Program-made: the position numbers and the translations under genes | In this document: in pieces, positions 1 through 42,755 of the stretch | Numbering within the stretch: the first letter of the stretch is position 1 | Layout of the letters: every line of letters begins with the position of its first letter | The notes under the pieces: model-generated | Told to the model about the DNA's origin: nothing | What the model saw: only the letters and a program-made list of their open reading frames with translations | The model's database searches: none | From: Oligoflexia bacterium | GTDB taxonomy: Bacteria > Bdellovibrionota > UBA1018 | NCBI GenBank assembly: GCA_963758495.1 | Contig: CAVWVI010000004.1 | Span: 471,587 to 535,586, forward strand | Direction of reading: 5' to 3' | Length of the DNA: 64,000 nt

Positions 1-2
1 AT

Positions 3-374
3 GTGCTTGAAATGGAGCAGCGCCTCTCTGGACGAGGAGCCGAGATGTCATTAGACACCCCTGTGAACCACGACAGCGAGAATCAAACCACTCATAGTGA
101 TCTTTTGGTGGATCATAATCAAATTGCTGATCAAGTTTTAGAACAGGCAGAATTACTTAAACTTCTCAGGGATCAGCTTCCCCATTTCCAAAAACTACTC
201 AATGATAAAGAATTGAGAATTCTCAATGACCGACTCTTAGCAGAAGAGCCCAAAACCTTACAAGAAGTCGCAGATCTCTATGGCTTAACTCGAGAGCGAG
301 CACGACAAATCGAAACTAAAGTCATTGAAAAACTTAGGGATTTTATGAAAACCTCATTTTCAGGAAAGCACTAA
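3..374 (+). CDS. RNA polymerase sigma factor, sigma-70 family, C-terminal part (5' end lies outside the window)
   Basis: ORF runs from the window edge; region-4 HTH motif TLQEVADLYGLTRERARQIETKVIEKLR typical of sigma-70/sigma-32 proteins. Confidence 0.7.
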   Translation: MLEMEQRLSGRGAEMSLDTPVNHDSENQTTHSDLLVDHNQIADQVLEQAELLKLLRDQLPHFQKLLNDKELRILNDRLLAEEPKTLQEVADLYGLTRERARQIETKVIEKLRDFMKTSFSGKH

Positions 375-16052: not shown

Positions 16053-16108
16053 CCTGTGTTATTAACACCTCACCTTGACTTAGTCTAGACCCGTCGGCCC
16101 TCATAATT

Positions 16109-16156
16109 CATATGACAATACATATGGCAATACAGATGGCCATTCATATGATAATT
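16109..16156. repeat. four tandem 12-nt units (CATATGACAATA / CATATGGCAATA / CAGATGGCCATT / CATATGATAATT) upstream of aspS
   Basis: Read directly from the sequence between the EEP-gene stop and the aspS start. Confidence 0.6.
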
Positions 16157-16160
16157 CCTA

Positions 16161-16916
16161 TCAGTTCAACATGAGTTCCGCAGTCAGGGCGGAGTGATCA
16201 GAAAGATCCCCCCAAGGCCGTCCACTCAAGCAACGAGCATGCTTTAATCGAAGCCCTCTGAAATAAATTCGATCCAGCCGGAACGCGGGCAACCAACTGG
16301 GGAAAGTTCTTGCGTGATAGCCATGAATTGAATGATAGGCCTCGCTGACATCAAGTCTTTTTTCAAGTACTGGAGAAGCCTTCCCTCGCCAATCATTGAA
16401 ATCTCCTCCGATCACCAAAGGTTCGTCATGCGGAACATGGGACTCAATTCGACTGCAAAGTCTCACTATTTGTTGGGCCCTTTCAGCCTCTAATAATCCC
16501 AAATGCACACAGATTGCATGAAGGGGTTTCCTTTTACCAGGTATAGCAATCACGCCATGAAGAAGACCTCTCTTCTCCCATGAGTTTGTGGACACATCGA
16601 TATTCTCATAAAATAAAAAAGGATACTTACTCAAAATCGCATTTCCATGATGCCCCAGAGTATAGACAGCATTTTTTCCATAAGCATAGTGCGGCCAAAG
16701 TTCATGTGCCAAAAACTCAAATTGGGGTTGTGACGGCCAGCCTTTTATATTTTTGCTATGTGCTTCATGCTCACCCTGAACCTCTTGAAGAAAAATAAGT
16801 TCAGGATGTACCGAGTGGAGAGCTTCACGAATTTTTTTTAGAGTAAATTGACCATTACCTGAATTGAACCCCTTATGTATATTATATGAAATAACTCTTA
16901 CCCGTAATTTTTCCAT
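16161..16916 (-). CDS. endonuclease/exonuclease/phosphatase (EEP) family protein
   Basis: N-terminal VISYNIHKG...IFLQEV and C-terminal SDHSAL motifs typical of the EEP fold; overlaps the upstream gene by 19 nt. Confidence 0.7.
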   Translation of the reverse strand: MEKLRVRVISYNIHKGFNSGNGQFTLKKIREALHSVHPELIFLQEVQGEHEAHSKNIKGWPSQPQFEFLAHELWPHYAYGKNAVYTLGHHGNAILSKYPFLFYENIDVSTNSWEKRGLLHGVIAIPGKRKPLHAICVHLGLLEAERAQQIVRLCSRIESHVPHDEPLVIGGDFNDWRGKASPVLEKRLDVSEAYHSIHGYHARTFPSWLPAFRLDRIYFRGLRLKHARCLSGRPWGDLSDHSALTAELMLN

Positions 16917-22162: not shown

Positions 22163-22585
22163 ATGATAGGGTCAAAAGTTTATAGGAAAATTCTATGCCA
22201 GACAGTAATGAACCCAACGAATATAATGACGAATATAATGACGAATATAATAATGAATAGTAATAGTAATAATAATAAAAATGACGAATATTATTACCTG
22301 AACCCAGAAGATGTGGATCCGGTTCGAATTAAGAAAGAACGAGAAAAAGCTCGAAAATTAAAAAAATCTCAATGGTGGCTCAGATTGCTCAATCAAGGCC
22401 TATGTCATTATTGTCAAAAAAAGTTTCCTTCCTCTCAATTGACGATGGACCATGTAGTCCCATTAGCTCGCGGTGGAGAAAGCAAGCCTGGAAATATTGT
22501 ACCCGCTTGTTCAGATTGTAATCGTAATAAAAAACTGGCCACCCCTGTGGACTTGCTTTTGAGAAAAATAGACGAGGAAAGTTGA
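22163..22585 (+). CDS. HNH endonuclease (small); N-terminal boundary uncertain
   Basis: HNH core CHYCQKKF...MDHVVPLARGG...NIVPACSDCNRNK; upstream part is AT-rich low complexity (NIMTNIMTNI), in-frame GTG near 22308 is an alternative start. Confidence 0.7.
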   Translation: MIGSKVYRKILCQTVMNPTNIMTNIMTNIIMNSNSNNNKNDEYYYLNPEDVDPVRIKKEREKARKLKKSQWWLRLLNQGLCHYCQKKFPSSQLTMDHVVPLARGGESKPGNIVPACSDCNRNKKLATPVDLLLRKIDEES

Positions 22586-23710: not shown

Positions 23711-25669
23711 TTACGGCAGAATCACAAGGCGAAAACCCAGATTCTCACTGCGGAGTACCGGCCACACCCACCCAACGCGCCCAGCCGGCCGACAGTCCTG
23801 GGCACCAGTGCCCCAGTCGCCGCCCCGAATGACACGGATAACGCCATAATTTGGCCCTTGCGGATCTTGAATAGGAATCAGAGTCCCATCCCTCCTTCGA
23901 GAGTTCCTTGAGTAAGATCCATACCACGAGTCAGACCACTCCAACACATTTCCTAATACGTCTTTCATTCCATAAGAGTTTACCGGTATTTCTGTAGTTC
24001 CTACCGGATGAACATGACCTCCAGAGTTCTCAAAATACCAAGCATATTTCCTGAGTTGAGTTAGATCGGTGCCCCATGGATAGGTAGTTTGAGTGATCTT
24101 CTTTTCGTCATAACTCAATCTCATATAATATTCCTGCTGAGCTTCCGTTGGAAGCTTCGCTCGAATCCCTTTTTTTTCCAGTTTTTGAATCACCTTTTGA
24201 GCGTCATCCCAATTCACATGTGTCATTGGACAAGTCAGACACTCCCTCCAGTTTGTAATCTCATGAGAGCCAGGATCTTCGCCTGTAATTTTATTCCACT
24301 GCTCCCGAGTCAGTTTCGTATCCATTACGAAAAAAGGGCTTAACTCTACCAGATGTTCCGTTTCACTATCGACTCGACCTCGGCGTCTTTCCTCTGCTGT
24401 GTCTGGAGTTCCCATCGTAAACCTTCCACCAGGAAGTGCCACAACATGAATTCCAAATTCCGCCAGCTTCTGGTTCATTCTCTTTTCTGGATTGTTCATG
24501 TCATCCAGGAAGTCATGCGCCGCCCGATGCCCTTGCTCGACCGCTTTCTTTAACCAATTCTTTGCTTGGGCTTCATCTCTAGGTACCTCAAACCCATCGG
24601 CATACATCACTCCAAGACCAAACTGGATCTGCATATCTCCCTCTTGAGCTGCCTTTAAACTGTCGCTCCAGTGCTTCTTGAGCCACTGAGATGCCAATTG
24701 AAAATCTTGAGCAATCCAATCATTCCCATGCAAATAAATTTTTACCAGTGCTCGCTCTGCTTCTGCTAAATGAGAAAAGTGTTCGTCATGGGCATTTTTC
24801 CATATTTGCACGAACTTTCGAAATCCACGGCGTTTCAAAGCTTCATGAGCCTGGGAGTTTCCACTTCTTGCGGCTTTCTCATACCATTCCGCCGCTTTCA
24901 CAAAGTCCTGAGGACACTCCTCCCCTTTTTCCATAGCTTGTCCCACTACAAATTGAGCTTCAGGATTTCCTGCTTCTGCCAGTTTCTCCGTAATCCGAAT
25001 TCCCTTCTTCAGAAATCTCTGGGCAACTTCAGGTAAACCCCTACTCTTAAATTCAGCCCCCTTCGCTATGTAAGCCTGACTGATTTCACCCAAACTCGCC
25101 ATTCGTTCCGATCCATTTCCTCCGTGCGGAATTTCACGAACCAAGTAAATAGAAATCGGATTCCCTTCCGTATGCAAAGTCATCATCGGATCAAAAATAT
25201 ATTCATATCCTGCAAAAGACCCATCCCACCGGACAGTGTCATCATGAATGCCTTCAAAAAGCTCACGCGTTTCCTGAGTTAACTTCACTGGATCAGCCGT
25301 TACGGGGTGAAGCGGAATCTTCTTTCCCTGCGACTCATCGCTTTGTGCTTGGACTAGCAACTTTTTACGATTATTTTGATCTCCTTGCCGCGTCCAAACA
25401 GAGAGTTCTCCCAGTCCAGTTCCCCTGACCTTCCAACCTTCAAAGTCATCTACATCAATCAAGACATCTGAGAAAAGCTGGACCACCGTTATTTCCGGAG
25501 CTTTAAGAGAAGAGTGACGGGCATGCGCACTTTGTGGGGTCGCAGTTGCTTGAGGCTCCGAACTTGAGGAGTTCTCAGCACCCATAGCGATCCCTGCCCA
25601 ACAAAATACACTCACGCCCAAAATCCCTAAGCCTCGGCAAATCAGTTTTATACCCATACTTCCCCTCAA
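23711..25669 (-). CDS. exported Sel1/TPR-repeat protein with C-terminal FGE-sulfatase (SUMF1-like) domain
   Basis: Signal peptide; Sel1-like repeats (AAEWYEKAARSGNSQAHEAL, AKNWLKKAVEQGHRAAHDFL); C-terminal RGGDWGTGAQDCRPAGRV...GFRLV. Confidence 0.65.
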   Translation of the reverse strand: MRGSMGIKLICRGLGILGVSVFCWAGIAMGAENSSSSEPQATATPQSAHARHSSLKAPEITVVQLFSDVLIDVDDFEGWKVRGTGLGELSVWTRQGDQNNRKKLLVQAQSDESQGKKIPLHPVTADPVKLTQETRELFEGIHDDTVRWDGSFAGYEYIFDPMMTLHTEGNPISIYLVREIPHGGNGSERMASLGEISQAYIAKGAEFKSRGLPEVAQRFLKKGIRITEKLAEAGNPEAQFVVGQAMEKGEECPQDFVKAAEWYEKAARSGNSQAHEALKRRGFRKFVQIWKNAHDEHFSHLAEAERALVKIYLHGNDWIAQDFQLASQWLKKHWSDSLKAAQEGDMQIQFGLGVMYADGFEVPRDEAQAKNWLKKAVEQGHRAAHDFLDDMNNPEKRMNQKLAEFGIHVVALPGGRFTMGTPDTAEERRRGRVDSETEHLVELSPFFVMDTKLTREQWNKITGEDPGSHEITNWRECLTCPMTHVNWDDAQKVIQKLEKKGIRAKLPTEAQQEYYMRLSYDEKKITQTTYPWGTDLTQLRKYAWYFENSGGHVHPVGTTEIPVNSYGMKDVLGNVLEWSDSWYGSYSRNSRRRDGTLIPIQDPQGPNYGVIRVIRGGDWGTGAQDCRPAGRVGWVWPVLRSENLGFRLVILP

Positions 25670-27058: not shown

Positions 27059-27296
27059 TGAATCTCAGTATATCTTACCGATTTCTGCATGTATACGTAT
27101 AAATCAGTATGACATAAGAGTCCAAAAAGTATTTATATGTGTGTATTCAACTTTAAAATACGTTAAGTTTTAAGGTAGTTTGAAATCTTATTAAGTCCAA
27201 ATTTCCTTATAGATTCCGATTGGTTATGATTAAAACAGAGCAACCTGAGATTGAAAACCTCCGTCTTCCCGCCTAGGGCCAGTGGATGAACGTGGT

Positions 27297-27584
27297 CTAG
27301 CTGAATTTTATGTCGTGAATTACAGATTCTGCCAGTATATCCTTCAATAGTTTCATTGCCCCTAATCGCCGCGCAGCTGCACCTTCCGAATAGTGAAGCC
27401 CTCTTACCAAATAATCGAATAAAGTATTGAATCCCCTCTGTGCATGTAATCTGCGCCGACCGACTTCCTTGATATGATGCAACACTGCTAAAATTAATTT
27501 TCGCTCCTCTTGAGCAAGAGATTGGGTTTTTGAAAATAAGTCACTATCGGTCAGATTTCTTAAGTTTTGCATCGTAAAAATCAC
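27297..27584 (-). pseudogene. N-terminal remnant of an HNH-endonuclease-type gene (first ~95 codons only)
   Basis: Pattern LTDSDLFSKTQSLAQEERKLILAVLHHIKEVGRRRLHAQRGFNTLFDYLVRGLHYSEGAAARRL matches, from memory, the conserved N-terminus of long HNH proteins; ORF stops after 95 aa and only 240 bp remain before the next gene. Confidence 0.35.
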
Positions 27585-27882
27585 ATAACACGAAAATCCT
27601 CCATGACCTGGAAAATACTGATGAGTCCGAATTCAAGTCTCAAGGTCCAATTTCAACACGATTTGTTTCGCATTTTTTAGTCTCTACATGACCTGATTTT
27701 TGCACAAGTGAAACCCTATGCAATACTTCAGAGAATTACACATACAGATGCAGAAACAAGATTATTACCGAATACTTGGATTTTTTAGAAAAAGTAAATA
27801 AATTTAATAAATTACTTGACTATAATATTAAAAAAGAGTAGGTTGCTCCAAATTACTTTGGGTAAAAAAAGGGAAAGTTGTC

Positions 27883-29142
27883 ATGTTGAAAGAAATTTCA
27901 AAAATTAAAATAGTGTTAAAAGCAGTCTATTTAGCCCTATCACTAAGTAGTGTTGTTATAGGTGGTTGTGGCAAGAACTCAAGTGATACAATACATGACC
28001 CCACAAGAAAGGGCTTTACAGAAAATGGAAATTGCTCCCCTTCATTTGAAGCAACCTATAACCAATACTCCGTTTTCGGCGATTGGAAGGGCCATAAATA
28101 TAAATATGCCTACTTGAGCATTTCTGATGGGCTAGAATCTAATCTGACTGACGCTAAGAAAATAGTTCAACACTCCGACCAAGTTCTTTCAGAGGTCACA
28201 GACCTTAGAAATCAAGGAAGTTGCTATTCTAGAAAGAAATATAGACAGATCCATCCTCATACTGACCCCGACCTTACAGATGCCGTAAGTACGGCGCAAT
28301 CTCTTACTCAGAAATTGGCTCCGGTTATAAACTTTTCAAATGCTAGAGATGAGCTCAGTAAACATGTGGGTATTCGAATCTCCCCAATTCCACTTTATTC
28401 CTTTAAACTGGAAAAAATATTCGATGAAAATCATTTTAAAAATCAAAAGTTAAATCCTACATTAGGTGAAGTGATCTTGCGTATTGGCACTTACCGCAAC
28501 AATCTTACTCAGCTTGATGCAAGTAAGTTCCCTGAGGTCTGCTATAATTGCAACCCTCGCGAAGAAATAGAAAGAGTTAACTTTTTTACGAATGAATTAC
28601 TTAAAATGAGTGCGAGACACGCAAGCGATACTCCATTCTATACAGCATATCAGCAAGCCAGCAGTTACGGCACTGGCAATAGTTACGGCACTGGCAATAG
28701 TTACGGCACTGGCAATAGTTACGGCACTGGCAATAGTTACGGCACTGGCAATAGTTACGGCACTGGCAATAGTTACGGCACTGGCAATAGTTACGGCACT
28801 GGCAATAGTTACGGCACTGGCAATAGTTACGGCACTGGCAATATTAGGAGAAATTACGACAGAAGAGATCATCATAATAGCGATAATCATAATGACAATA
28901 ATAGAGGATATGGTTTTCCTTCAAGCTTGACTCCACACAAAGACAAATTGGTCGCTTACTTACGAGCACTCGATGGTAAATTTGGATATACTTGTAATCT
29001 CTCTTCAGGGTCGCCCTCTAAAGAGGAAGTACAATCCGCTGCCAGAAAAGCCGCTTTTAAATTACATCCTGACAAAGGCGGTAGTGAAGATGAGTTCAAA
29101 ACTTTTAATTATTTTTGGGATAAATTTAAAAATGAAACTTAA
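27883..29142 (+). CDS. lipoprotein-like protein with (SYGTGN)x10 tandem repeat and C-terminal J-domain-like segment
   Basis: N-terminal hydrophobic segment ending VIGGCGK (lipobox-like); ten identical hexapeptide repeats; C-terminal KAAFKLHPDKGGSEDEFKTFNYFWDKF resembles J-domain helix II-HPD-helix III. Confidence 0.6.
   Translation: MLKEISKIKIVLKAVYLALSLSSVVIGGCGKNSSDTIHDPTRKGFTENGNCSPSFEATYNQYSVFGDWKGHKYKYAYLSISDGLESNLTDAKKIVQHSDQVLSEVTDLRNQGSCYSRKKYRQIHPHTDPDLTDAVSTAQSLTQKLAPVINFSNARDELSKHVGIRISPIPLYSFKLEKIFDENHFKNQKLNPTLGEVILRIGTYRNNLTQLDASKFPEVCYNCNPREEIERVNFFTNELLKMSARHASDTPFYTAYQQASSYGTGNSYGTGNSYGTGNSYGTGNSYGTGNSYGTGNSYGTGNSYGTGNSYGTGNSYGTGNIRRNYDRRDHHNSDNHNDNNRGYGFPSSLTPHKDKLVAYLRALDGKFGYTCNLSSGSPSKEEVQSAARKAAFKLHPDKGGSEDEFKTFNYFWDKFKNET
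28663..28842 (+). repeat. 10 perfect tandem copies of the 18-bp unit AGTTACGGCACTGGCAAT, in frame inside the CDS
   Basis: Read directly from the sequence; all ten copies identical. Confidence 0.95.
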
Positions 29143-29273: not shown

Positions 29274-30083
29274 ATGCGCATTGCTGCAATACAGATGACG
29301 ACGTCTCCGGACAAAGTTAAGAATTTAAATGAAGCCTACCGCCTTCTTCAAGAAGCTCTAGAGAGGGGCTCTGACCTCATCGCTTTTCCAGAAAACTTTT
29401 CACTCTTGACAGGCAATGGTGATCAGTTCCTGGAAGAAGCGGAAACCCTGCAAGGACTTACGGTAAGCACTCTTCAAGAATGGGCTGCGGACTTCGACGT
29501 ATGGATTCTGGGTGGCAGTATTGCTCTTAAAGCAAAATCAGATCCTAAACGAGTCACAAATACGAGTATCTTATTCTCAGACGAAGGTGATATTCATGCA
29601 CGTTACGATAAGATTCATCTATTTGATGTCAATGTAAAAAATGATCAAGTTTATGAAGAATCGAAATTAGTGACTCCCGGCAAGAAAGTTGTTGTCGCTG
29701 AAACCCCCTGGGCCATGACTGGTTTATCGATCTGTTATGACCTCAGATTTCCTGAACTCTATCGCAAGCAATCTAATGCTGAAGCAAAGATCCTTTTCAT
29801 TCCATCCGCTTTTACAAAACCCACTGGCGCTGCCCATTGGGACGTCCTCACTCGTGCCCGCGCGATTGAGAACCTCTCTTATGTCGTTGCACCTTCACAA
29901 ACTGGGACAGCATATCCGGGACGTGAGACCTATGGTCACACACGAATTGTAGATCCCTGGGGAAGAGTGATTTCGGAAAGACCTGCCGGACCCGGTATCG
30001 TTTGGGCGAGGCTTGATTTGGAAAAACTGGAAGAGACTCGAAGAAATTTTCCTGCGTTAAAAAATCGAAAATTAAGAGCGTAA
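29274..30083 (+). CDS. carbon-nitrogen hydrolase (nitrilase-superfamily amidohydrolase)
   Basis: MRIAAIQM start, catalytic Cys context GLSICYDLRFPE, 269 aa. Confidence 0.85.
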   Translation: MRIAAIQMTTSPDKVKNLNEAYRLLQEALERGSDLIAFPENFSLLTGNGDQFLEEAETLQGLTVSTLQEWAADFDVWILGGSIALKAKSDPKRVTNTSILFSDEGDIHARYDKIHLFDVNVKNDQVYEESKLVTPGKKVVVAETPWAMTGLSICYDLRFPELYRKQSNAEAKILFIPSAFTKPTGAAHWDVLTRARAIENLSYVVAPSQTGTAYPGRETYGHTRIVDPWGRVISERPAGPGIVWARLDLEKLEETRRNFPALKNRKLRA

Positions 30084-30090
30084 ATAAACC

Positions 30091-30966
30091 TTAATTTAAA
30101 GTTTTCTTTAGCTCTGTCCCTAGAGGTTGGATCAGTTTCTCTATCTTTTGAACAAAAGATACACGAACGCCTTCTTTTACGTGGGAGACGAAAATTCCTT
30201 CTGGCGCATACCAAGGTTTTTCGACTTGTACGACCAGGGATGCTTTCAATGAAAACTTCTTAGAATCAACCGAGTCTTGCGACACTTCATAGGTGTAGCG
30301 ATTCGATTTCAAATAGATTGTATTACCGCTTCCTTTTATGCTTTTGGATTCGGAATCAAGTTTAAGAAAGCTTTTTTTATCCGAGAGAAGGGTTAGGACC
30401 TGACGGATCGACACCTGATCTCCATTTTCAACAGTGGTAGCCGTCACCTTAAACCGTTTTTCAAATAAACCCTGCGGAGTCTCAGATTCTATTGTAGCGT
30501 GAATCTCGAATTCTTTAGAAATCCAGTTCAAAAAATAAGTTTCTAGTTCCGTCAAATCACCTAAATTTTCCAAAGTGATGTTACAAAGTGTGGATAAATG
30601 GACTTCAAAGTAACCTTGATCATTTTTCCGTTTTGTTCCGTCCCAATCGAAATCCTCACATTGTGACGCGAATGAAGTAGGAGTGATTGATTGACTCAAT
30701 CCAACTCCACCTAAAGTACCTCCAACAAGAGGTCGGAGGTTTCGTTTTGAATAAAATGAAGAGTGAACTGTTCTTACTCGATGACCCCAAGACCCTGCAC
30801 TAGACACAGACTGAACAGGCTGCCTCAAAAAATTCCCAAGAACCACCCTGCGAGGCGTCCGAGTTACTGAAAGAGCGCTGAGAGCCTTTCTCATAGTCCC
30901 ATGAGCTGGATTGGAGCCTAGACAAAAAACGAGGATTAAAAAAACTAGAGTCTTGATACTATCCAT
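30091..30966 (-). CDS. hypothetical exported protein
   Basis: Signal peptide MDSIKTLVFLILVFCLGSNPAHG; no recognisable motif. Confidence 0.45.
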   Translation of the reverse strand: MDSIKTLVFLILVFCLGSNPAHGTMRKALSALSVTRTPRRVVLGNFLRQPVQSVSSAGSWGHRVRTVHSSFYSKRNLRPLVGGTLGGVGLSQSITPTSFASQCEDFDWDGTKRKNDQGYFEVHLSTLCNITLENLGDLTELETYFLNWISKEFEIHATIESETPQGLFEKRFKVTATTVENGDQVSIRQVLTLLSDKKSFLKLDSESKSIKGSGNTIYLKSNRYTYEVSQDSVDSKKFSLKASLVVQVEKPWYAPEGIFVSHVKEGVRVSFVQKIEKLIQPLGTELKKTLN

Positions 30967-31043: not shown

Positions 31044-32798
31044 TTAAAAATGAAAAAGCTGAGTTCCGATATCCTTATACGAAATCGGTTTAGCTAGAAT
31101 AACGGGAGGACCTTGAACAAGCCAATAAACAGGTTGAATAGAGTGAACGACCTCAAACCCATCCATTAAGTTCATTCCAATATAGAATTTTTTATTTGGA
31201 GTTAAACCATTCAAAGCACCGTATACATGTCGATTCCAACCATTGACCTCATAGCCTCCATCCACCTGAAATGGAGATACCCCAGACTTTACGATTTCAT
31301 CAAATAAACTCCATCTCACTTCATTCCATCGAAATTCATCATGAACTCCCGCTATGGAGAAAAAGCCTAGCGGCATGCATGCGATAAGAAAGGTCGCGAT
31401 TCGTGCTCTAAAGAATTGTGGTGAAATTTTCGGTAAAGATATCCATGTGATCAATGCGGGCAATAAGAATAATAACACTGGAAAATGATAACGATCATAA
31501 ACAAAATTTCCATAAACTTGAACCGTAACAAAAAAAATAATACTAGAAAGCAGCACTGAAAATGTAATCACTCCTCCATAGCTCTTTCGTTTTTTCAATA
31601 AGGCAGAAAAACTCATGGATAAAAACAAACAGGATCCAAAAATCGTCAGAGCTTCGACACATCTCCAAATCCACACTGGCCACTGGGGCCTTCCCTGTAA
31701 ATGATGTTCGTAAACATCCTCTAAAGTAATGGGTCCAATACCCGCATTATAAATAATATTACCAAGAAATGGGAACCCCTGATGAACAAATGTGTCCACA
31801 TGATAGGGTTGAAAAACTCGAGATCGATAAAAAATAAGCGCCCCTTCGAATAACAAAGTAAATAATAAAGCCGTAACCACTTTCTTACGAGAGAAGACTT
31901 GTATCGGCATCAGAAAAAAAAGAGGATAGAAATAAGCCACCGCATAGATAAGAAAAATGAATATTTCTTTAAAAAAAGTTTCTGGATTCACGCTCGTAAG
32001 ACGAGATAGTGGAATCGCAAACTCCTGCTTAAAATTTCCGGTACTTTTAGCCCAAGGGAAATAGAGTAAAATCACCCCGCTGAATATCAGTATCCCCACC
32101 AGCCACTTTAAAATGACTGCCCGATTCTCTTTCTCTTTAAAGTTAAAGCACCATCCTCGATCAAGAAGCCAAGCTCCCAATAAGGCTGGATAAACAAGCA
32201 CTGCAAACTGACGGACCCAAAAAAGCAAACCGGAGAGCACACTAACTAGGATCATTAAAAGCCAGGTGGGGTGACTTGCCTTTCCACGACACTTTGAAAA
32301 CCAAAGAACAGCAATCCACAAAGCAGGAACAAACCCATACATTTCGTTCATGAACGTCGTTGAGAGGTAAAGGAAAAGGGGGTTAACGATAAAAAGGATT
32401 AAACCCAAAGCACGAGCTAATGCCGGGGTACCCGCCAGAACCATCAATCGGTCCATGGCTCTTAAGCCTAAAATACTCATTCCGAGAGTTACACCCCGCA
32501 AGAGCTGATGAGAAAATCCAAATAGTTTAACCCACGGAAACACCCAAAGAACTTGCCCTACTAATGAGGGGGCAATGGGCGTTTCAATCCAAACCTTTCC
32601 CAGCTCGAGCAAGCGCTTTACGACGAGTGCATACTGCCAATCATCGTTTAGCGGAAAATTTCCCCACGGAGCAATCACCGCAATGATCACTAAATAAAGG
32701 ATAAAAGGGATCCACCAGTAAAGATCGAGCTTGTTATTATTGATAAAAAGACTCCTTGAAGACTGAATATAACTCGATCTTTCTTCTATTTCCAACAA
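31044..32798 (-). CDS. polytopic membrane protein, GT-C-like glycosyltransferase candidate (ArnT/PMT-like)
   Basis: 584 aa with more than 10 predicted TM helices; acidic motif FPLNDDWQY in the first extracytoplasmic loop as in GT-C enzymes. Fold assignment tentative. Confidence 0.45.
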   Translation of the reverse strand: MLEIEERSSYIQSSRSLFINNNKLDLYWWIPFILYLVIIAVIAPWGNFPLNDDWQYALVVKRLLELGKVWIETPIAPSLVGQVLWVFPWVKLFGFSHQLLRGVTLGMSILGLRAMDRLMVLAGTPALARALGLILFIVNPLFLYLSTTFMNEMYGFVPALWIAVLWFSKCRGKASHPTWLLMILVSVLSGLLFWVRQFAVLVYPALLGAWLLDRGWCFNFKEKENRAVILKWLVGILIFSGVILLYFPWAKSTGNFKQEFAIPLSRLTSVNPETFFKEIFIFLIYAVAYFYPLFFLMPIQVFSRKKVVTALLFTLLFEGALIFYRSRVFQPYHVDTFVHQGFPFLGNIIYNAGIGPITLEDVYEHHLQGRPQWPVWIWRCVEALTIFGSCLFLSMSFSALLKKRKSYGGVITFSVLLSSIIFFVTVQVYGNFVYDRYHFPVLLFLLPALITWISLPKISPQFFRARIATFLIACMPLGFFSIAGVHDEFRWNEVRWSLFDEIVKSGVSPFQVDGGYEVNGWNRHVYGALNGLTPNKKFYIGMNLMDGFEVVHSIQPVYWLVQGPPVILAKPISYKDIGTQLFHF

Positions 32799-39717: not shown

Positions 39718-40977
39718 ATGGCTATTTTGATTGTAGATGACGAAACAAAAACTCGAGATGCCTTGCGAAATCTTCTGAGCCATCTTGGACATAAAGTACT
39801 CTTAGAAGCCAAAAATGGAGAGGAAGCTCTTAAAGTCGCTCACTCTGAGAAATCTCGAATTAAACTAGTCCTTGCTGATTTAGAAATGCCTCATATGGAC
39901 GGGCTGACTTTAGCCAAAAAAATTGGAGAACTGCCCATTCTCGACTTGGCACCCTTTCTTTTGATTACTTCCGATCTATCTCGATCTCAATTATCTGAGC
40001 ATAGAAAACAAATCCCACGAATCGATTTCTACCTGCTTAAGCCTTTTCGAATGGCAACATTAGCAGAGGCTCTGAATCGTGCCTATATCCAGAGAAGCCT
40101 TACACGAAGTCAGATACTCTATGTGGGAAAAAATATTCCTATCTCCCTTTCTCAGGCTATTCACCAAAGCTCTCATGATACCCTTTGGACAGAACTAGTC
40201 CTCATTCAAAGCCCAACAGCACTCAAAGAAAAACTAGTCAGCTTCGCGCAAAAACCAGGAGTGATCTTACCAGGAGCTATCTTCATTCATCCGTCAGACC
40301 TAAACCAGGACGAAAAAATACAATACAGTGAGATCCTCTCAATCTTCAAAAAGACACCTCTAGGTAACATGATGCAGTTTGCGTGCTTAAGCCGGAATCC
40401 AGAGGAAGTATTTAACTTTAGAATAATTTGTCAGCTTTTCTACACACCCCAAAGCACTATTCAGGATTGGCATTCACTCCTCACGCAAATCACGATGAGA
40501 ATTCATCATAGCTGGGAAATAGAACTACTTGCTCAAGAAACTAAATTTAAAATTCAGGAAAGGCAATACAAAACAGCACTAAAAACTGCTGAACAAGCAT
40601 TAAAGTTAGATCAAAATAATTCCGAATCCCATATTACGATCGGCGAAATTCTGGAGCACCTCAATCAACAGGACAAAGCAGCACTTCACTATCAAAAGGC
40701 CATTCAACTCAATCCTACTTTACCACGTCCGTATATTAAACTTTTTAAGCTTTGCTCTCATTCAAAAGCTTTTCATGACAAACCCCAAGATATCTTCGAA
40801 ATAATCACGATGGGTGTGCAGTTCTGTCCACAGAATTTGGATTTTCTCTTTTTCGCAGCAACAGAATTATTTAAACTTGGAAATAAAAGAACCTCTAAAG
40901 ATCTTTTAGAGATCATTCTTAATATAGAGCCTCAACATTCAAGTGCCAAGATACTATTGAAACAAATCCAATGTTAA
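39718..40977 (+). CDS. response regulator with receiver domain and C-terminal TPR repeats
   Basis: ILIVDDE...LADLEMPHMDGL receiver motifs; C-terminal TPR-like helices; ATG at 39718 (TTG at 39709 also possible). Confidence 0.7.
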   Translation: MAILIVDDETKTRDALRNLLSHLGHKVLLEAKNGEEALKVAHSEKSRIKLVLADLEMPHMDGLTLAKKIGELPILDLAPFLLITSDLSRSQLSEHRKQIPRIDFYLLKPFRMATLAEALNRAYIQRSLTRSQILYVGKNIPISLSQAIHQSSHDTLWTELVLIQSPTALKEKLVSFAQKPGVILPGAIFIHPSDLNQDEKIQYSEILSIFKKTPLGNMMQFACLSRNPEEVFNFRIICQLFYTPQSTIQDWHSLLTQITMRIHHSWEIELLAQETKFKIQERQYKTALKTAEQALKLDQNNSESHITIGEILEHLNQQDKAALHYQKAIQLNPTLPRPYIKLFKLCSHSKAFHDKPQDIFEIITMGVQFCPQNLDFLFFAATELFKLGNKRTSKDLLEIILNIEPQHSSAKILLKQIQC

Positions 40978-42755
40978 ATTTTTTCTTACCCATCATAACG
41001 CTTTTTTTACTGATTTTTGTAATCGACCTCTTCTTTCGTAACAGCAGAGACTTACTCTATCGTACAAATATTTTATCAGGAAAAATTCCTCTTAACGAGC
41101 AACAGCTATTGGAAGTCGTTCAAAAATACGGAAACAATAGCAATTCCTTCATGACGCTTTACCCTGGCTTTGATTACTTTAAATCAAAAGATCCAACTAT
41201 TCCTGGAGCTATAGCATTTTTAGAAATGTCGTACGCTTGGATCGGTGGGACCGAACCTCTCACTTCTCCAGAATGTGAAAATAGGCTCCTCACTGAATTC
41301 GCCGAAGCTGCTGCGAAAGTAGGAAAAACTGCTGTTTTATTGCCTGTGAATCAAGAAGTCGCCAAAAGAGCTTCAAAAGCAGGATATGGCAGCTTAATGA
41401 TTGGACGTGAACCTGTCTTTGATTTATCTTTTTATCCCAAAACTGGAAACACTTGGATTGATATCATACCGACAGCTAAGCAACTTGATGCAAAAGGTGC
41501 AAGAATTATTGAAATTTCTCCCACTCAATGCTCCCAGCAAATCAAACATGAACTCGATGCGATCACAACCGAATGGTTATCTACTAGAAAAATGGATCCA
41601 TTAGGCTTTTTAAATAAAGTAGAACCTTGGACCCTTTCTGAACATAAAAAGTATTTTTACCTTGAGCTTTCAGGAAAAATACTAGCATTTTTAGCAGCAA
41701 TCCCCATTTGGCCACGACGTGGCTGGTATCTTATTGATTTAGTGCGAAAAAAAGACACTCCCGCAGGAACTACTGAGTTACTCACCCTTCGAAGTATGCA
41801 GCTTCTAAAAAATGCAGGTGCCCAAGAGGTTACTCTAGGTGTCTCACCTCTTGCTCAACTGGACTCTGACCCTTCAAACCCAAAACTATCAGCATTTCTT
41901 CGTATGATGTACGAAAAAGGAAATCTATTTTATAATTTCAAATCTCTTTATCAATACAAACTCAAGTTTGATCCCACAAGATGCGATGCTGCTTATCTTA
42001 TATTTAAAAATATAGAAACACAGCAGACTCACCTTCGACTCAAGGATGTCCTCAGCATATTTCAAGCTTTCTCTCGAAAGGGACTGATGCATGCAACGTG
42101 GTCAGGGCTCACTCGTTCCGTAAAACAAACCCATCTTTCTGAATTAATCAGAAATCAGTTAAAATTGGCAGTAGTCGTGCGTTCAGTTCCAAGATCTTGG
42201 CGCCTTCTCCTTTTGCGTTGTAAATTTACTGTGTCCATATTGGTTTTCAATTTAGTTCTGTTTTTTGCCACGACAGAATCTTCTGGATTACTGAAATCAA
42301 GCATTGAAGCCCAATGGGGTTACCGATGGGATACTCTTCATCAATCCCCCGTCCACGCACTCGCACTTTCTCCTTTTCTTCATTGGAATTTAACTCATTT
42401 AAATATCAATTTAATCCTACTCATTTGTTTCACTGGAGGATTAGAATATCTTGCAGGCACAGGCTTTGTGGCCCTGTGTTACCTGATTCCCATGATCCTT
42501 TCAAACCCTCTCACCTCATTATGCCTGGGTGCAATGAATTTTCCGCTGACAGAGCTTGATGTGGGGGCGTCTTTAGGAATTTTTGGCTGTGTCGGCGCTC
42601 TGAATGGGTTTTTGCGACATGGAATCATCTTGAGCGCTAGCCTATGCGGCATCACCTTGATTCAAGCACTGGTGACGCATAATGGACTTGTTTTGAATCA
42701 TTGGACGGCTCTCTTTCTTGGAACCTTAATTGGAAGACTTGCACTCAAAAAGTAA
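40971..42755 (+). CDS. membrane protein with DUF2156 (MprF C-terminal/aminoacyl-lipid-synthase-like) domain fused to a rhomboid-like C-terminal domain
   Basis: N-terminal TM; central region has DUF2156-like blocks (MIGREPVF, IPIWPRRGWYLIDLVRK); C-terminal TM domain has rhomboid-like HWNLTHLNINL, VGASLGIFG and NHWTALFLG. Start overlaps the regulator's stop. Confidence 0.5.
   Translation: MLNFFLPIITLFLLIFVIDLFFRNSRDLLYRTNILSGKIPLNEQQLLEVVQKYGNNSNSFMTLYPGFDYFKSKDPTIPGAIAFLEMSYAWIGGTEPLTSPECENRLLTEFAEAAAKVGKTAVLLPVNQEVAKRASKAGYGSLMIGREPVFDLSFYPKTGNTWIDIIPTAKQLDAKGARIIEISPTQCSQQIKHELDAITTEWLSTRKMDPLGFLNKVEPWTLSEHKKYFYLELSGKILAFLAAIPIWPRRGWYLIDLVRKKDTPAGTTELLTLRSMQLLKNAGAQEVTLGVSPLAQLDSDPSNPKLSAFLRMMYEKGNLFYNFKSLYQYKLKFDPTRCDAAYLIFKNIETQQTHLRLKDVLSIFQAFSRKGLMHATWSGLTRSVKQTHLSELIRNQLKLAVVVRSVPRSWRLLLLRCKFTVSILVFNLVLFFATTESSGLLKSSIEAQWGYRWDTLHQSPVHALALSPFLHWNLTHLNINLILLICFTGGLEYLAGTGFVALCYLIPMILSNPLTSLCLGAMNFPLTELDVGASLGIFGCVGALNGFLRHGIILSASLCGITLIQALVTHNGLVLNHWTALFLGTLIGRLALKK

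Follow-up and report, generated by a model that had tools for sequence, protein, structure and literature searches.

The window analysed here is a stretch of 64,000 nt from the chromosome of an Oligoflexia bacterium (assembly GCA_963758495.1, contig CAVWVI010000004.1, positions 471,587 to 535,586 of the forward strand). Its subject is an open reading frame (ORF) at 27883..29142 on the plus strand, which encodes 419 residues followed by a stop and is a candidate gene for an exported J-domain lipoprotein. The protein is built of four modules, whose order and reading frame are established: (i) a lipoprotein-type signal, (ii) an N-terminal domain (N-domain), (iii) a perfect tandem repeat with a linker and (iv) a C-terminus that resembles a J domain. 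The coordinates of the modules and of the surrounding genes are collected in Table 1.

Modules of the encoded protein

The ORF at 27883..29142 is a genuine gene that was found in no other lineage. Codon usage was scored as log-odds, with 35 long ORFs from the window as the training set, and the annotated frame ranks top of the six in both the N-part and the C-part of the gene. The C-part scores 0.209, compared to a window gene mean of 0.215 +/- 0.04. The N-part scores 0.057 (other frames -0.20 to -0.61), which is under the minimum of all training genes (0.13) and akin to the scores of homologue-less neighbours (e.g., 0.12 for 30091..30966); the low value fits a young or fast-evolving gene. Within the first 60 codons the candidate starts are M1, L2 and V11 only, and no other start codon would yield the N-domain without the signal. 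A Logan contig (L001), assembled independently from run ERR11523676, also contains the 3' third of the gene; a literature search with the run accession found no paper. Within the 64-kb window there are neither paralogues nor a second protein with the His-Pro-Asp (HPD) tripeptide of J domains.

The initial annotation had described a lipobox-like signal at the N-terminus, and the sequence bears this out. Residues 1-29 (MLKEISKIKIVLK-AVYLALSLSSVVIGG-C) match two lipoprotein regular expressions, one of the PROSITE PS51257 style and one of the G+LPP style, and the N-terminus reads MLKEISKIKIVLKAVYLALSLSSVVIGGC followed by GK. The n-region (MLKEISKIKIVLK) is basic with a charge of +3, the h-region (AVYLALSLSSVVIGG) comprises 15 uncharged residues and the lipobox Cys lies within the first ~35 residues, in keeping with PS51257. 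No other real ORF of the window carries a lipoprotein pattern. The charge drops from +3 ahead of the hydrophobic stretch to +1 behind it, which predicts an N-in, C-out orientation. The protein would be expected to leave the cytoplasm and to be lipid-anchored at Cys29. The +2 rule of E. coli would place the anchor of the protein, which has Gly at +2, in the outer membrane.

The N-domain includes four cysteine residues (Cys51, Cys114, Cys220 and Cys223), the last two of which form a CYNC motif. Its single-sequence AlphaFold model is unusable, with a predicted local distance difference test (pLDDT) score of 34. The Pfam matches of the N-domain are all sub-threshold and include CTD1 of ABC-3C systems (E 5.6e-4, under the cut-off), Abi_C and Het-C; PADLOC assigns it to no defence family, and Pfam and PHROGs likewise give no family match. 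Scans at the DNA level found no relatives of the N-domain in the species genomes of GTDB, in JGI metagenomes, in IMG/VR or in GenBank phages, and an exhaustive phmmer search with the N-terminal 260 residues against 1.84 billion representatives returned zero matches and did not recover even the protein itself. In word-indexed searches of 5.8 billion proteins, the whole protein had no match at E <=1e-3, where words of the repeat probably swamped the candidate list, and the C-terminal 99 residues yielded one candidate and zero matches. Exact-product look-ups of the full protein and of the window-type C-terminal fragment were empty. This protein, like any other with its N-domain, is absent from a collection of 15 billion proteins and from its library of 1.84 billion representatives, although the collection contains proteins of neighbouring genes on the 1,107,183-bp contig.

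The repeat consists of ten perfect in-frame 18-bp units, as the initial annotation had reported, and two methods agree on it. Tandem Repeats Finder detects one array here (28663..28843, period 18, 10.1 copies, 100% matches, zero indels), and in a pattern search the unit is matched without mismatch exactly 10 times, at 28663..28842. The unit does not occur elsewhere in the window, even with up to 3 mismatches allowed (0.02 copies expected by chance), and the repeat dimer, searched as a DNA pattern, was not found in IMG/VR. The array forms the core of a disordered spacer of ~90 residues (~261-350) that is rich in Gly, Tyr, Ser and Asn. The TrAA12 model and a serine-rich NCBIfam model match the repeat only and were set aside as compositional matches. 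Elsewhere in the window, two short imperfect 12-bp arrays lie between ORFs, at 16105..16161 and 22217..22278 (4.8 and 4.9 copies, 77-91% matches).

The count of ten carries a caveat at the 3' edge of the array. The L001 contig, an independent Logan assembly at k=31, begins inside the array, as is expected of a 180-bp perfect repeat. Its first 60 nt (1..60) and positions 28796..28860 of the window differ at the array edge, while the remaining 7.2 kb are identical. In the window, the closing GGCAAT is followed by ATTAGG and AGAAAT (N-IR-RN), whereas in L001 it is followed by AATTACGGTACTGGT and AGAAAT (N-NYGTG-RN), such that ATTAGG, the first 6 nt of the linker, is replaced by a degenerate eleventh unit, NYGTG, with synonymous changes. 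The difference amounts to 9 nt, is in frame and requires three separate indels; the reading frame is kept by both versions. Since real arrays usually end in a diverged terminal unit, the L001 edge looks the more natural of the two, and the window edge could reflect a consensus error at the repeat boundary, possibly from reads of unequal length, or a second allele. Owing to the disagreement, the window sequence is not secure as to where exactly the array ends and possibly as to how many copies it has. Edge and copy number are thus uncertain or variable, and ten is not to be taken as a fixed count. The array has in common with variable-number tandem repeat and contingency loci that its repeats are perfect, lie inside a gene and have a unit length that is a multiple of three, and it is a candidate length-variable locus as well as a known type of assembler trap. 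The break of L001 in the array and its different in-frame 3' edge are the sole hint of length polymorphism; a second full-length copy of the gene was not found in the collections searched.

The C-terminus was likened to a J domain in the initial annotation, and this is supported. In a search of 24,736 models, the best match outside the repeat is Pfam PF00226 (DnaJ), with E 7.8e-4; the score of 19.9 bits, however, remains under the curated cut-off, and the alignment spans profile positions 13-45 of 63 only. By calculation from the corrected E-value, the probability of such a match in a single comparison is ~3e-8. A phmmer search of PDB sequences places J domains in the top three positions and among 13 of all 18 matches, the best of which is the J domain of the murine polyomavirus T antigen (1faf), with LHPDKGGS and W..FK.E in common. 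Three phage families (PHROG) match the J-like segment (E 2e-5 to 1.6e-4), and of the weak tblastn matches in phages many are annotated as DnaJ-domain proteins and the remainder are mostly hypothetical. The exact 8-mer AFKLHPDK is common to the C-terminus and to a phage protein of IMG/VR, in which it lies at the N-terminal end of a small J protein. This phage protein, of 135 residues, is encoded at 2974..3381 of contig IMGVR_UViG_2785510824_000030, and its N-terminal J motif reads ...KQAYKKYAFKLHPDKQGG....

The predicted structure points in the same direction. A single-sequence AlphaFold2 model of residues 345-419 (pLDDT 75) has three helices, and the HPD falls in the loop that joins helices 2 and 3 (36-50 and 58-73 of the 75-residue fragment), where J domains carry it. 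The basic helix II and the hydrophobic helix III form an antiparallel hairpin, as in J domains. When the tail is aligned with DnaJ and DjlA of E. coli, two J proteins of phages and a T antigen, the HPD residues and an Ala are invariant, helix II includes the basic residues R388, K389 and K393, and helix III has the pattern FKxFNxxW. Foldseek ranks a T-antigen J domain first among PDB structures, followed by auxilin, DNAJB12, Tim14, Thermus DnaJ and CbpA; among the top 45 matches in BFVD, nearly all that are named are T antigens or phage J proteins. The structure matches are all weak, at E 0.02 or worse. Residues 351-419, whose sequence and structure neighbours are mostly J domains, probably adopt a genuine J-type fold. 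On this reading they form a minimal J domain, in which helices I-III are present and the HPD is intact, and which belongs to the 'HPDKGG' type that viral J domains typically show.

Table 1. Modules of the 27883..29142 gene and features in its surroundings
Feature	Coordinates	Strand	Remarks
Shine-Dalgarno-like AGGGA	27870..27874	+	8 nt 5' of the ATG; tentative, read from the sequence
Coding sequence	27883..29142	+	First possible start of the open frame at 27883
Type II (lipoprotein) signal peptide, predicted	27883..27969	+	Residues 1-29; lipobox I-G-G-C, Cys29 at 27967..27969
N-domain	27970..28662	+	Residues 30-260, ~230 residues
Ten perfect 18-bp units, AGTTACGGCACTGGCAAT	28663..28842	+	Residues 261-320, (SYGTGN)x10
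Low-complexity N/D/H/R/G-rich linker	28843..28932	+	Residues 321-350
J-like domain	28933..29139	+	Residues 351-419
J-like helices			I ~351-367; II ~380-394; III ~402-417; no helix IV
HPD	29065..29073	+	Residues 395-397, within the C-terminal KAAFKLHPDKGGSEDEFKTF
AAA_14 ATPase, 392 residues	25880..27058	-	PADLOC candidate defence family PDC-S01, E 2e-52
Disrupted HNH endonuclease gene	~27140..27584	-	Directly upstream of the coding sequence
CN-hydrolase	29274..30083	+	Downstream neighbour
Homologue-less gene, 291 residues	30091..30966	-	Signal-peptide-like start MDSIKTLVFLILVFCLGSNPAHG
Homologue-less gene	31044..32798	-	Downstream neighbour
AAA_14 ATPase paralogue, 392 residues	48517..49695	-	DUF4143 domain in addition

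Host and surrounding genes

The PNPase of the window is 84-86% identical to those of metagenome-assembled genomes of Bacteriovoracaceae and Oligoflexia, which places the organism in the Bdellovibrionota; the closest of these genomes are represented by contigs CANHSO010000020, JANNCA010000398 and CAZCBS010000036. The host chromosome is Bacteriovoracaceae-like, and the host is probably predatory. The G+C content of the genome is 41.6%. The window is ordinary chromosome: it includes the genes of PNPase, thymidylate kinase, DNA polymerase III delta' and a Mla-type ABC system, together with those of AspRS, fumarase, ThyA and two-component regulators. Between these housekeeping genes, the J-like lipoprotein gene lies in a patch of lineage-specific genes. 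The disrupted HNH gene, a remnant of a selfish element, occupies part of the 0.8 kb that precede the coding sequence. Its ORF at 27297..27584 covers only the N-terminal helical part and then meets a stop, and the HNH motif LDHVHPLALGGKTEVFNLRLLCFNHN follows further downstream in another frame. The two homologue-less genes downstream have no significant family match in Pfam, PADLOC or PHROGs. The neighbouring CN-hydrolase was compared at 50 metagenome loci, where the closest relatives are 54-62% identical; the closest of these loci have no other gene of the window in common and no J-like ORF, and synteny is thus uninformative. Rfam finds nothing in the window.

Other proteins noted in the window are: (i) a protein of 652 residues with Sel1 repeats and a C-terminal FGE-sulfatase (formylglycine-generating-enzyme-like) domain (23711..25669, minus strand), (ii) a fusion of 594 residues in which an LPG_synthase_C (lysyl-phosphatidylglycerol-synthase C-terminal) domain is joined to a rhomboid protease domain (40971..42755, plus strand) and (iii) a Fic/DOC-domain protein of 411 residues (58453..59688, plus strand).

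Possible partners for a putatively exported J domain

J domains have one known job, which is to switch on an Hsp70. A J domain behind an export and lipidation signal consequently implies an Hsp70 outside the cell, a J-domain function that has gone unrecognised or an error in the rule by which topology is predicted. It is established that the bacterial periplasm is devoid of both Hsp70 and ATP; thus, a functional J domain there would have to meet the Hsp70 of another cell. Our tentative proposal, which as a complete chain we would put somewhat short of probable, is that of an exported, tethered J-domain lipoprotein that acts on foreign Hsp70, namely that of prey. In a predatory lineage, the obvious candidate partner is the DnaK of the prey, which the protein would meet once it is released or delivered in the course of predation. 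Its J domain would trigger ATP hydrolysis by DnaK, and the N-domain would provide the target or location. The repeat would serve as a flexible spacer, the length of which could change through slipped-strand mispairing, six residues at a time, with the frame intact. The closest functional model is HopI1, an effector of a plant pathogen, and T antigens of viruses and J proteins of phages likewise exploit a host Hsp70. The fullest form of the idea, in which a predator commandeers prey DnaK by means of a lipid-anchored protein whose minimal J domain is of the viral type and sits on a tether of variable length, is improbable as a whole.

Several points weigh against the proposed action on prey Hsp70. 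Among those that concern the signal and the host, the strict lipobox [LVI][ASTVI][GAS]C is not matched, as Gly occupies position -2 (I-G-G-C), the predatory lifestyle derives from taxonomy alone, and we know of no route by which a Sec-exported lipoprotein would enter the prey cytoplasm. The J-like domain has the sub-threshold DnaJ score noted above (19.9 bits, with a gathering cut-off of 27.8) and three of the four helices of a J domain: the protein stops 22 residues past the HPD, and helix IV is therefore absent. The conserved Tyr of helix II (Y25 of DnaJ) is replaced by Ala. The protein has no homologues, and the conservation of the HPD or of the signal can therefore not be gauged. As for the repeat, an actual change in copy number was not observed.

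One alternative is a membrane-anchored J protein that faces the cytoplasm, as does DjlA of E. coli, with an uncleaved N-terminal anchor and recruitment of the cell's own DnaK to the membrane. DjlA has an N-out anchor, which keeps its J domain in the cytoplasm. The likeness lies in the order of the parts, which are an N-terminal hydrophobic membrane segment, a central domain of ~200 residues, a Gly-rich low-complexity linker (GGAQFGGGYQQQTGGGNWQQ in DjlA) and, at the very end of the protein, a J domain, and this arrangement alone lets the J domain meet an Hsp70 without further assumptions. By contrast, the charge bias is the reverse of that in DjlA (+3/+1 here and +1/+3 in DjlA) and predicts N-in, C-out, while the hydrophobic stretch is just 15 residues long and ends at the lipobox Cys. 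Sequence similarity to DjlA is likewise lacking (best BLASTP E 0.58), as is a match to a TerB-type domain. Membership of the DjlA family was rejected on the grounds of charge bias, lipobox Cys, BLASTP result and missing TerB-like domain, and a cytoplasm-facing arrangement of this kind is considered unlikely.

A second alternative is an ordinary size-variable lipoprotein of the surface or periplasm, in which the J-like tail is decayed or a product of chance and has no function with Hsp70, and in which the lipoprotein and its tandem repeat would be what matters biologically. The score under the Pfam cut-off, the missing helix IV and the replaced helix II Tyr are compatible with an inert tail, three-helix bundles are generic, and there are no homologues to reveal selection on the HPD; it is also established that no Hsp70 partner is at hand outside the cytoplasm. 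Against an inert tail stand the per-comparison DnaJ probability calculated above, the convergence of independent sequence and structure searches on J domains, the motifs shared with a phage J protein (AFKLHPDK) and the murine polyomavirus T antigen (LHPDKGGS), and the placement of the HPD exactly in the predicted helix 2-3 loop. On balance, we doubt that the tail is inert; if it is, the protein would be one more lineage-specific repeat lipoprotein. That there is no genuine single gene, but an ORF open by chance or two stretches fused through the repeat into an assembly chimera, would fit the absence of the protein from the 15-billion-protein collection, the low codon score of the N-domain and the disagreement with L001 at the array edge, but is very hard to credit for an ORF of 419 codons at this G+C content, with the annotated frame top of six, a frame kept by both array-edge versions, a repeat unit found nowhere else in the window and a signal, lipobox and J-like domain that make up a coherent protein.

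An Hsp70 outside the producing cell would, in an organism of the Bdellovibrio group, point to the manipulation of prey DnaK, a predation mechanism of which the literature searched here gave no description. If the fullest form of the idea is true, the protein would be a counterpart, in a bacterial predator, of HopI1 and of the J proteins of phages and polyomaviruses. It would also be the first J-domain effector routed by Sec and lipidation, and evidence, the first of its kind, that a bacterial predator makes use of the chaperones of its prey.

Comparison with known J-domain proteins and repeat lipoproteins

The protein would be a variant among exported J-domain proteins, represented by a single sequence without homologues. 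Viral J domains, including those of polyomavirus T antigens and the J proteins of large phages, are the best sequence and structure matches of its tail. These domains hijack the Hsp70 of the host. They are N-terminal or free-standing and reside in the cytoplasm or nucleus, whereas the domain described here is C-terminal and lies behind an export signal. All matches are weak, and common descent with the viral J domains is not established.

Size-variable lipoproteins with in-frame tandem repeats are known from Mycoplasma (Vlp/Vsa). The lipoprotein signal and the perfect in-frame repeats, in which slippage can alter the length but not the frame, are shared with these proteins. In Vlp/Vsa proteins, however, the exposed C-terminal body consists of the repeats, while the repeat described here is an internal spacer between two domains.

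Among eukaryotes, the ERdj proteins of the endoplasmic reticulum lumen have a signal peptide and a J domain. J proteins are also exported by Plasmodium (PMC1431722). Both groups share with the protein of the window the combination of a signal peptide and a J domain, and act where Hsp70 exists outside the cytosol of the producer. They are, however, eukaryotic and have a known Hsp70 partner in the target compartment, whereas no partner is known in the bacterial periplasm. The initial annotation had called the combination of export and a J domain contradictory, which goes too far, as J proteins that act on the Hsp70 of another cell are known (HopI1, PMC4617103; Plasmodium, PMC1431722). A J domain behind a Sec/lipobox signal is nevertheless unusual in a bacterium, and a literature search for J domains in combination with lipoproteins or the periplasm, or with Bdellovibrio, found no such description.

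HopI1, a type III effector of Pseudomonas syringae, has an N-region without assigned function, central repeats and a C-terminal J domain, and it leaves its producer to use the Hsp70 of the target cell (PMC4617103). HopI1 is delivered into plant cells by type III secretion, whereas the protein described here has a Sec/lipobox signal and is thus not a family member by delivery route. The repeats also differ, as those of HopI1 are four imperfect P/Q-rich units of 27-38 residues and those of the window are ten perfect G/S/Y/T/N units of 6 residues; a further difference is that the protein described here is from Bdellovibrionota and has a J domain without helix IV. The likeness is one of architecture only, taken from the published description of HopI1: in both proteins an N-region is followed by tandem repeats in the centre and by a J domain at the C-terminus.

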